In this document: in pieces, positions 7,658 to 11,431 of the stretch | How the letters are laid out: every line of letters starts with the position of its first letter | Numbering within the stretch: the first letter of the stretch is position 1 | Made by a program: the position numbers and the translations under genes | Assembly (NCBI GenBank): GCA_963783305.1 | Contig: CAWAMW010000002.1 | Coordinates: 320,001 to 384,000, forward strand | DNA length: 64,000 nt | Source of the DNA: an uncultured Gemmatimonadales bacterium | GTDB taxonomy: Bacteria > Gemmatimonadota > Gemmatimonadetes > Longimicrobiales > RSA9 | Reading direction: 5' to 3' | Notes under the pieces: generated by a model | The model's database searches: none | Seen by the model: only the letters and a program-made list of their open reading frames with translations | What the model was told of the DNA's origin: nothing

Positions 7658-9736
7658 CTACCAGATGTTCACTCTCTGCTCCGGCGCCATCCACATGCCG
7701 TCGCCGGGCTGCAGGTCGAAGGCCTCGTAGAAGGCGGGCATGTGTGCCACGATGCCGTTGGTCCGGTACTCGCTCGGCGAGTGCGGGTCGGTCATGATGC
7801 GGTTGCGCAGCTCTTCCTCGCGGTAGAGGCGGCGCCAGACCTGGGCCCAGCCCATGAAGAAGCGCTGGTCGCCGGTGTACCCATCGATGACCGGCGCCTG
7901 CTGCCCGTTCAGCGACAGCTTGTACGCCTTGTAGGCGACGGCAAGGCCGCTCAGGTCCCCGATGTTCTCGCCCAGCGTCATCTGGCCGTTGAGGTTCAGC
8001 CCCTCCAGCGGCTCGTAAGCGGTGTACTGGTCCACGATCATGCCGGCCCGGGCATCGAACGCCGTGGCGTCCTCGGGGGTCCACCAGTCGCGCAGGTTCC
8101 CGGCGCCATCGGACTTCCGGCCCTGGTCGTCGAAGCCATGACTGATCTCGTGGCCGATCACCGCGCCGATGGCGCCGTAGTTGACGGCGTCATCCGCCTC
8201 CAGGTCGAAGAAGGGCGGCTGGAGGATGGCGGCCGGGAACACGATCTCGTTCCGGACGGGGTTGTAGTACGCGTTGACCATGTAGGGCGGCATGCCCCAC
8301 TCGTTCGGGTCGATGGGCTCGCCGAGCTGTGACACATTGTCGTGGTACTCGAACGCGCGCACGCGACGCAGGTTGTCGAGCAGGTCGCCCTCCTGGATCT
8401 CCAGCCCCGAGTAGTCCTCCCAGACATCGGGGTAGCCGATCTTCGGCGTGAAGTTGGCCAGCTTGTCCTTCGCCTCCGCCTGCGTGGCGGGGCTCATCCA
8501 CTCGAGCTCATCGATCCCCTGGTCGAAGGCCGCGAGCAGGTTCCCCACCAGCTCATCCATGCGGGCCTTGGCCTCGGGCGCGAAGTAGCGCTCGACGTAG
8601 AGGCGGCCGAGCACGTCGCGGAGCGAGCCCCCGACCACGTCCACGCCGCGCTTCCACCGCGGCCGCTGCTCCGTGATGCCGGCCAGCGTCCGCCTGCGGA
8701 AGTCGAAGTGGGCATCGACGAACTCGGAGCTGAGGAGCGGCGCGGCGCCGTCGAGGGTGTGGAAGGTCATGTACGCCTTCCATGTGTCCACGGGCGTCGC
8801 GGCGATGATGTCATCCACCGCCTCGAAGTACGACGGCTGCTGCACGACCACCTGCTCGGCGTCGTCCAGCATGGCGCCGTGCAGGTACGCGGCCAGGTCC
8901 ACCGATCCCATGAGGTCATCGGCCTCGGCCACGGTCATCTTGTTGTACGTGGCGTTGCGGTCGCGGTTCTCCGTCTGCGTCCAGTGCTTGTCGGCGATCG
9001 CGGTCTCGAGGGCCAGGATCGCGTCGGCGGAGGCCTCCGGCCGCGGCTCACCGGCGAGGCGCAGGAGGGTGGCCACGTAGTCGCGGTACGCGCTCCGGAG
9101 CTTCTCGAACTGCTCGCCCTCCCGGAAGTAGTAGTCGCGGTCGGGTAGCCCGAGGCCGCTCTGGCCCAGGTAGGTGATGTGCTGGTCGGACTGCTTCTGG
9201 TCGATGTAGACATAGGCGCCGAACGGGCCGCCGATCCCCAGCGGGGCCGTCTCGCCCCAGAACGCCGGCAGCTGGGCCGTGGACGTGACCTCCGCGATGG
9301 CGTCCAGCTCCGGGCGCACCGCTTCGATCCCCAGCGACTCGATCCGCGCCGTGTCCATGAAGCTGCGGTAGAGCGAGCCGACCTTCTGGGCATCGCTGCC
9401 CTCAGGGGCCTGCAGCGCGGCCACGGACTCCACCACCGCCCGCAGGTTGTGCTCGGCCTCGTCGGCCAGTTGTGCGAACGAGCCGTAGTTCGAGCGGTCC
9501 GCGGGGATCTCCGTGCGCTCCAGCCACTTGCCGTTCACGTAGCGGTAGAAGTCGTCCTGCGGACGCACGCTCTCGTCGATGTTCTCGAGGGCGATCCCGC
9601 TCTCGAGCGCGGGCGCCGTCACGGCCACCGGCTCGGCCTGGGGCGCCGGCGCGGGGGCGTCCGCCGTCCCGGCCGCGCAGCCCGTCAGCGACGCTATGGC
9701 CAGCAGCGAAAGAATTCTGGTCGGGGTACTCGACAT
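7658..9736 (-). CDS. M13 family zinc endopeptidase (PepO/ECE-like), lipoprotein
   Basis: Lipobox LTGC; PQDDFYRYVNG, VNAYY, GHEISHGFD, GENIGD, DPHSP. Confidence 0.95.
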   Translation of the reverse strand: MSSTPTRILSLLAIASLTGCAAGTADAPAPAPQAEPVAVTAPALESGIALENIDESVRPQDDFYRYVNGKWLERTEIPADRSNYGSFAQLADEAEHNLRAVVESVAALQAPEGSDAQKVGSLYRSFMDTARIESLGIEAVRPELDAIAEVTSTAQLPAFWGETAPLGIGGPFGAYVYIDQKQSDQHITYLGQSGLGLPDRDYYFREGEQFEKLRSAYRDYVATLLRLAGEPRPEASADAILALETAIADKHWTQTENRDRNATYNKMTVAEADDLMGSVDLAAYLHGAMLDDAEQVVVQQPSYFEAVDDIIAATPVDTWKAYMTFHTLDGAAPLLSSEFVDAHFDFRRRTLAGITEQRPRWKRGVDVVGGSLRDVLGRLYVERYFAPEAKARMDELVGNLLAAFDQGIDELEWMSPATQAEAKDKLANFTPKIGYPDVWEDYSGLEIQEGDLLDNLRRVRAFEYHDNVSQLGEPIDPNEWGMPPYMVNAYYNPVRNEIVFPAAILQPPFFDLEADDAVNYGAIGAVIGHEISHGFDDQGRKSDGAGNLRDWWTPEDATAFDARAGMIVDQYTAYEPLEGLNLNGQMTLGENIGDLSGLAVAYKAYKLSLNGQQAPVIDGYTGDQRFFMGWAQVWRRLYREEELRNRIMTDPHSPSEYRTNGIVAHMPAFYEAFDLQPGDGMWMAPEQRVNIW

Positions 9737-9895
9737 AGTCTGTATTCCTCAATGGTTCTGACGTGACAATCTCGTCCGGCGACCTCGCTCGGCACGGGGT
9801 CCATACGCCCCAAAGAGACGTCGGGTTCCGGCAGCGGGCAAGTCAGGCTGGATCCGGTCCGGCGTTCCCGCTGCACGGGCCCACCCCCGCCCGCC

Positions 9896-9924
9896 TTGAC
9901 CCGCGCCCGGTGTCGCGGCACTAT
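9896..9924 (+). promoter_or_regulatory. Putative sigma70-type promoter giving a leaderless transcript
   Basis: TTGACC (9896-9901), 17-nt spacer, CACTAT (9919-9924), 6 nt, then ATG 9931; no SD sequence. Confidence 0.6.
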
Positions 9925-9930
9925 CCAGCC

Positions 9931-10008
9931 ATGGACACGCGCCGATATCCCGCCTATACCCGCTATACGACCCGCCCCGCGGGCCGTGACCGGAGGCGTA
10001 TGCGCTGA
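9931..10008 (+). CDS. Tyr-rich attenuator leader peptide (25 aa)
   Basis: [25 protein letters not shown]; three TAT codons at 9946, 9955, 9964; lies upstream of terminator and Tyr biosynthesis genes. Confidence 0.75.
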
Positions 10009-10032
10009 GGCGCAGACCGATTCCAGGCGCAC

Positions 10033-10071
10033 GGGCGGCCCGCGGAGCATTTCCGCGGGCCGCCCTTTTTT
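10033..10071 (+). terminator. Intrinsic terminator of the aroF-tyrA leader
   Basis: Perfect 14-bp stem GGGCGGCCCGCGGA/TCCGCGGGCCGCCC, loop GCATT, then T6; ends 20 nt before aroF ATG. Confidence 0.9.
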
Positions 10072-10091
10072 CATCCGGCACCCAGGTACCC

Positions 10092-11161
<1,070 letters not shown>

Positions 11162-11165
<4 letters not shown>

Positions 11166-11431
11166 GCGACCTGGCGGAGCTCCGAGACCGGATCGAGGCG
11201 ATGGACCGCTCCATCATCGAGCAGGTGGCGGCGCGCGTGGAGCTCGCCCGCAGAATCGGTGCACTGAAGCGGGAGCGGGGCGTGGGGGAGCTGGACCCGG
11301 GGCGTGAGGCGGCGGTGATCCGGCAGGCGGTGGAGACTGGGCGGGAGCACGGCCTCCCCGGCGAAGCAGTGAGGGAGCTGTTCTGGAACCTGATGGCGCT
11401 CTGCCGCGGCGCGCAGATGGAGGACCGATGA
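11162..11431 (+). CDS. Chorismate mutase (AroQ type)
   Basis: [27 protein letters not shown] overlap; operon context. Confidence 0.88.

Follow-up and report, generated by a model that had tools for sequence, protein, structure and literature searches.

A candidate leaderless, tyrosine-counting attenuator upstream of aroF, chorismate mutase and tyrA in an uncultured member of the Gemmatimonadota

Organization of the Locus

The window, that is the whole stretch of 64,000 nucleotides analysed here, carries on its forward strand three genes whose products lead to tyrosine and whose stop and start codons overlap. Upstream of them lie a promoter-like sequence, a short open reading frame (ORF) and an inverted repeat, arranged as follows in window coordinates.

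9896..9901, plus strand: -35-like hexamer TTGACC, found by sequence inspection, with a 17-nt spacer to the -10 box
9919..9924, plus strand: -10-like hexamer CACTAT, followed by 6 nt and then by ATG 9931
9931..10008, plus strand: leader peptide ORF of 25 codons, free of Phe and Trp codons
9946-9948, 9955-9957 and 9964-9966, plus strand: Tyr control codons 6, 9 and 12, all TAT
9966..9975, plus strand: region 1, the 5' arm of protector hairpin 1:2 in the minimum free energy (MFE) fold, overlapping the last Tyr codon
9977..9987, plus strand: region 2, the antiterminator strand, pairing with 10035-10045 and beginning 10 nt past the last Tyr codon
9989..10026, plus strand: inner stems within the antiterminator loop, from predicted folds only
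10001-10014, plus strand: small hairpin spanning the leader stop codon, one of the predicted inner stems
10033..10071, plus strand: intrinsic terminator of 14 Watson-Crick pairs, -34.4 kcal/mol
10033-10046 and 10052-10065, plus strand: terminator regions 3 and 4, followed by T6 at 10066-10071
10092..11165, plus strand: aroF, DAHP synthase of the PRK08673 / TIGR01361 type, 357 aa, above the NCBIfam cut-offs
11162..11431, plus strand: chorismate mutase, AroQ type, 89 aa, above the PF01817 cut-off and the sole PF01817 match in the genome
11428..12267, plus strand: tyrA, prephenate/arogenate dehydrogenase, 279 aa, above the PF02153 cut-off and the sole PF02153 match in the genome

The same intergenic region is shared with a divergent gene for a PepO-like (M13) peptidase with a lipoprotein-like N terminus (7658-9736, minus strand). 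The genome has a GC content of 69% and is 96% complete, and the closest named DAHP synthases to the AroF of the window are those of Gemmatimonadota.

An earlier note on this DNA had described a promoter-like TTGACC-N17-CACTAT-N6-ATG, which is present base for base at 9896-9931, and a 25-codon ORF with three TAT codons at every third position, which was likewise found. The exact 10-base reverse complementarity that it pointed out between 9977-9986 and 10036-10045 was recovered (about 0.001 occurrences per 100 nt are expected by chance), as was the perfect 14-bp terminator with its T6, and profile matches to DAHP synthase, chorismate mutase and prephenate dehydrogenase agree with its statement that the downstream genes make tyrosine. 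The occurrence of at least three Tyr residues among 24 codons has a chance probability of about 0.011. With a score of 8 of 12, the promoter falls below the threshold of the consensus sigma-70 scan and is absent from its listing. Two in-frame GTG codons, at 9763 and 9910, were considered as leader starts and rejected, both lying upstream of the -10 box. Three leader peptides searched against NCBIfam, that of the window among them, gave no match. Taken as a whole, the locus has an ORF rich in codons for the end product, an intrinsic terminator, an antiterminator that excludes it and a protector over the control codons, which are the parts by which attenuators are recognized.

A Leader Peptide on a Predicted Leaderless Transcript

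The distance from the -10 box to the start codon is 6-7 nt in 53 of the 64 strictly defined leaders (see below), and in the genome of the window the promoter-to-ATG distance of coding-like ORFs peaks, genome-wide, at 6 nt. Shine-Dalgarno-like motifs precede just 4 of 132 leader starts as against 73 of 132 aroF starts. These sequence features suggest that transcription would start at the A of ATG 9931, giving a leaderless transcript. A second putative leaderless leader peptide is found elsewhere in the same genome (C2:83468, plus strand). It has a run of six His codons and then a terminator, lies upstream of hisG and the his operon, and shares the promoter geometry of the aroF leader. With this second candidate, the genome appears to use the design more than once. 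The earlier view that a leaderless attenuator is unusual does not hold, as leaderless leader peptides have already been published for Deinococcus deserti and for Streptomyces, for which several are listed (PMC8079986).

Conservation of the Leader Among Relatives

The orthologous set comprised 104 aroF upstream regions with a protein identity of at least 57%, four loci short of upstream DNA and three duplicates having been dropped. A codon-blind rule (TTG box, 16-19 nt, xAxxxT, 4-8 nt, ATG or GTG) fires in 64 of these regions, and all 64 ORFs that it picks contain at least three Tyr, Phe or Trp codons, compared with 26 of 152 short ORFs picked by the same promoter-geometry rule in the genome of the window as a control. 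Only two of these 152 control ORFs, the aroF leader and the His6 leader, are followed by a strong terminator. With 13 further leaders chosen by eye the first set amounts to 77 leaders; the leader is absent from the remaining 27 regions, which include loci with aroF behind another gene. Absence is frequent in one family (code f2), affecting 18 of its 22 loci (L026, L027, L030, L119-L128 and others); L122 and L128, of the same family, may retain decayed leader remains. At locus L021 (genome G034) a leader-like sequence that lacks a start codon lies downstream of a short duplicated copy of the aroF 5' end, reflecting either decay or an assembly artefact.

When the rule was applied to 73 further genomes held out for this purpose, it fired in 60, and 58 of the 60 ORFs contain at least three aromatic codons. 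Leaders have been retained in five family codes and in well over 100 orthologous regions. The pooled counts given in this work use 132 distinct leaders, among them L060, with a mis-picked terminator, and L229, a doubtful leader pick, both of which were kept. The earlier note had proposed an alignment of orthologous leaders for conserved Tyr codons and covariation; aromatic control codons and pairing helices are retained across relatives. The spacing of Tyr at every third codon is kept in just 2 of 132 leaders.

Pairing, Covariation and Folding of the Leader RNA

Across the 132 leaders, the ORF pairs with the 5' arm of its own terminator at a mean of -22.7 kcal/mol, as against -19.4 kcal/mol with the arms of other species (the own arm being better in 97 of 132) and -16.3 kcal/mol for shuffled ORFs, which the real ORF surpasses in 131 of 132. 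The duplex between ORF and arm begins 9-13 nt after the last Tyr or Phe codon in 91 of 132 leaders, a distance roughly equal to the reach of a ribosome.

Covariation was assessed in 49 leaders, hand-chosen from the main subfamily and aligned by sequence only; as kin, they are not independent. The terminator has two-sided changes at 8 of its 14 pairs, in 54 cells versus 9.4 in shuffled alignments, and the protector 1:2, paired in 84% of cells, has them at 4 of 9 pairs and in 21 cells versus 8.6. Covariation, which the earlier note had named as a check, is present in these two helices, and in the antiterminator 2:3 by one measure out of two: 90.8% of its cells are paired and 16 cells versus 5.0 show two-sided changes, but counted by pairs these fall at 2 of 11, not above shuffles, the core being mostly invariant. 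In one alignment column an A-U pair is replaced by G-C jointly in regions 2, 3 and 4. RNAalifold recovered the terminator and three pairs of 1:2 and nothing more. An anchored pair table (126 of 132), partly circular, was left out of the evidence.

In folding predictions for the nascent RNA up to position 10050, masking up to 9 or 12 nt past Tyr6, Tyr9 or Tyr12 allows the 2:3 helix to fold, with arm 3 paired at 0.79-0.99, and a ribosome placed at codon 14 or later abolishes that helix. Without translation, the most stable fold combines the terminator with hairpin 1:2. At equilibrium the full-length RNA favours the terminator whatever the position of the ribosome, and any switch between the two structures must therefore be kinetic. 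At least five T residues are found in an automated 12-nt window in 77 of 132 leaders; the number is reduced because some hairpins extend into the tract. The U-tract after the terminator hairpin is weak in genus g67 and its kin (L129-L147), where termination may differ; in several loci of this group pheA lies divergently beside aroF.

Codon Choice and the Sensed Amino Acid

Tyr accounts for 12.8% of leader codons compared with 1.2% in the aroF genes of the same loci, and Phe for 6.2% compared with 2.2%. As both are enriched, the leader family is better described as aromatic than as Tyr-specific; control regions containing Tyr only occur in 29 of 132 leaders. The tyrosine specificity claimed in the earlier note stands for the genus of the window and for genomes devoid of prephenate dehydratase, and does not extend to the family, whose leaders use Tyr, Phe and sometimes Trp codons. 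The same applies to the exclusive use of TAT: it is true of the leader in the window, within a genome where TAT makes up 15.7% of Tyr codons (2318 long ORFs), and fails as a rule, with 165 TAT and 277 TAC codons in the 132 leaders. Nevertheless, U-ending codons are enriched relative to aroF (TAT, 37% versus 9%; TTT, 61% versus 16%), and this bias is confined to Tyr and Phe codons, being absent for Asn, Asp and Cys. It may be explained by slower wobble decoding by a single GUA tRNA. Selection of a tRNA isoacceptor as the cause of TAT use was rejected, one tRNA-Tyr (GUA) gene having been found in the genome.

Control Codons Follow the Biosynthetic Genes

No prephenate dehydratase was matched by HMM or tblastn in the genome of the window (96% complete), nor was a match found in six other genomes of the same genus (completeness 72-95%). 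Because prephenate dehydratase is not detectable, a shortage of Phe could not be relieved by the operon, and this would be why the leader counts only Tyr. The relation was followed across the relatives, whose downstream genes were identified by tblastn. In the first set of 77 leaders, 21 of 25 are Phe-free in genomes without prephenate dehydratase and none of 52 in genomes with it. The hold-out comprised 60 strict leaders, with predictions fixed before the gene search and 13 regions without a strict match uncounted; here Phe-free leaders amount to 14 of 18 in genomes lacking the enzyme and 2 of 42 in genomes encoding it (11 of 15 and 2 of 40, respectively, after removal of five duplicates of training leaders). 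Even within aroF-chorismate mutase-tyrA operons, Phe codons are present in 13 of 13 leaders when prephenate dehydratase is encoded elsewhere and in 4 of 16 when it is not.

Shared ancestry was taken into account on an AroF tree of 132 rows, in which 12 independent pairs on well-supported branches gave 6.7 concordant and 0.0 opposite cases on average, with one opposite pair in 3 of 200 pairings. The sign test gives a median p of 0.016, with values up to 0.125, a modest result, and the tree has no direction, so that loss and gain are not distinguished. Trp codons occur in 3 of 44 leaders when chorismate mutase follows aroF without pheA versus 17 of 27 otherwise, a comparison made with no tree correction. 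Exceptions to the rule linking Phe codons and dehydratase number 10 of 132 by whole-ORF counts and 13 by control-region counts; some may be assembly gaps.

Individual loci illustrate the variety of these leaders. L117 (G159) and L060 (G294) are sister leaders with Phe and Ser, respectively, at the same position; prephenate dehydratase is present in the genome of the former and gave no match in that of the latter. Locus L143 (G209) has a Phe-only leader, with seven Phe and no Tyr or Trp codons, in the only genome of 79 that lacks TrpA and TyrA matches. At L167 (G216), an open frame fusing prephenate dehydratase and prephenate dehydrogenase domains lies downstream of aroF and chorismate mutase.

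The lack of a detectable prephenate dehydratase bears on the metabolism of the organism, which would be auxotrophic for Phe. A Phe hydroxylase match was also absent from the genome of the window. An alternative route to Phe may exist via a periplasmic cyclohexadienyl dehydratase, an enzyme linked to the PF00497 family; the genome has three PF00497 matches, and the one compared with the PDB matched binding proteins only. Putative Phe and Tyr auxotrophies have been reported for one order of Gemmatimonadota (PMC10469786).

Proposed Mechanism and Alternatives

With a probability that we put at about 0.88, the locus is a transcription attenuator of the four-region, ribosome-mediated type, borne on a leaderless transcript, in which a shortage of Tyr-tRNA leads to read-through into aroF, chorismate mutase and tyrA, and which counts Tyr only for lack of prephenate dehydratase. 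The basis of this reading is the anatomy of the locus, its conservation, the compensatory changes, the geometry and the correlation between codons and genes. RNA polymerase would start at or beside AUG 9931, and a ribosome would load directly. When Tyr-tRNA is ample, the ribosome would pass codons 6, 9 and 12 and cover region 2 before region 3 exists, so that the 14-bp terminator forms and transcription stops near 10070. Under Tyr-tRNA shortage it would instead stall on UAU, masking region 1 and leaving region 2 free to pair with region 3 before region 4 emerges, with read-through into the three genes as the outcome. The proposal of the earlier note that stalling on Tyr codons frees the antiterminator thus gains support from the computational tests of conservation, own-arm pairing, covariation and masked folding.

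The signal might be of another kind, the attenuator responding to a general slowing of translation or to peptide-dependent arrest (TnaC-like, or through an Arg-rich C terminus) and not to a lack of Tyr-tRNA. This is improbable. The C-terminal half of the leader is recurrently rich in Arg and Gly, and in Corynebacterium glutamicum the single Tyr codon of aroR reportedly confers no response to Tyr (PMC11802643); however, the C-terminal residues vary, their DNA is the pairing region, the peptide can end directly after region 2 (L036, L138), and a ribosome stalled at codons 19-24 would sit over region 2, which would favour termination. That the identity of the aromatic codons tracks the biosynthetic genes of each genome argues further against a response other than to the amino acid. 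Slighter still is the chance that the switch acts on aroF translation initiation or mRNA stability instead of transcription termination, as the weak U-tract of genus g67 and its kin and the 77 of 132 leaders with at least five T might suggest: in the window, T6 follows the end of the hairpin at 10065, which is 26 nt short of the aroF start, and therefore no ribosome-binding site would be covered. The least probable account is that of a constitutive terminator or small RNA, the ORF and the GC-rich complement having both arisen by chance. A GC content of 69% would favour such complements, the terminator is always the most stable fold, and the probability of three Tyr in a 25-codon ORF, taken by itself, is about 0.01, but well over 100 orthologous regions from five family codes preserve the reading frame, its length, the aromatic codons, the spacing and the pairing.

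Beyond the single locus, ribosome-mediated attenuation through Tyr codons would probably have become a purely Tyr-counting biosynthetic control repeatedly within a phylum-wide family, the control codons being re-tuned to pathway content. Other known controls were also sought. The T-box (RF00230) gave no match on the window stretch or in the genome, and a TyrR-type regulator (TIGR04381 HTH) was not found in this 96% complete genome. No Trp leader was seen before its trpE or trpD. The genome encodes two more DAHP synthase paralogues (C16:606428 and C7:62838-63821), one of which adjoins menaquinone-like genes; scans found no leader before either, and the two enzymes may feed the Trp and quinone branches.

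Across more than 100 genomes, the agreement of control codons with biosynthetic genes constitutes a natural experiment in which a regulatory sensor follows the gain or loss of a pathway. It supports real amino-acid sensing without culture and offers an independent check on Phe auxotrophy predicted from metagenome-assembled genomes. If the repeated re-tuning is true, a 25-codon leader would foretell which amino acids an uncultured bacterium cannot make, whatever the gaps in its assembly. The leader family is missing from Rfam and NCBIfam, and a compact candidate for a Tyr-specific biosensor is also provided.

Comparison with Known Systems

In Rfam searches, neither the stretch of the window nor 10 related loci gave a match at the gathering score of any family, the Trp, Phe, His, Leu and Thr leaders included. 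In the literature searched, no paper was found on leader-peptide attenuation in Gemmatimonadota, and searches of openly accessible papers found no report of a Tyr-only biosynthetic attenuator and nothing on point concerning the co-evolution of codons and auxotrophy. The aroR leader of C. glutamicum is leaderless. Like the leader of the window, it is an aromatic-codon leader peptide before a DAHP synthase gene (aroF) that acts by ribosome-mediated transcription attenuation; it differs, by description only, in its Phe-Tyr-Phe motif, its reported response to Phe and not to Tyr, and its phylum (Neshat et al., 2014, as cited in PMC11802643; PMC4046766). Tyrosine control has so far been credited to TyrR and to T-boxes (in part, PMC11802643).

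A close likeness is that to Deide_18471 of Deinococcus deserti, a putative leaderless leader peptide before DAHP synthase (PMC4007540, Table S9), whose TSS is mapped to the A of ATG, the position predicted for the window, and which shares a short aromatic-rich ORF, the target enzyme and predicted attenuation. It differs, again by description only, in having Phe, Tyr and Trp codons. A second putative leaderless leader peptide of that species, Deide_00051, precedes tyrosine-tRNA ligase (PMC4007540); likened by description only, it differs in its single Tyr and its synthetase target. In Acholeplasma, the uORFC-13-1 motif before aroF, with predicted attenuation, shares the DAHP synthase target and differs by a ribosome-binding site and Phe codon(s) (PMC8632094). 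The attenuators predicted before aroA-tyrA in Thermus and Vibrio are alike in having DAHP synthase with tyrA downstream, Table 7 of that source giving neither leader peptide nor sensed amino acid (PMC1173090). The leaders trpL, pheL and hisL of Escherichia coli have the same 1:2 / 2:3 / 3:4 logic, end-product control codons and a U-tract terminator (PMC11802643; PMC2659441; PMC1183508), whereas the leader of the window is predicted to be leaderless and its control codons are those of Tyr. The mechanism itself is known, and what is new is the Tyr-only variant, together with the way in which control codons match biosynthetic gene content throughout the phylum.
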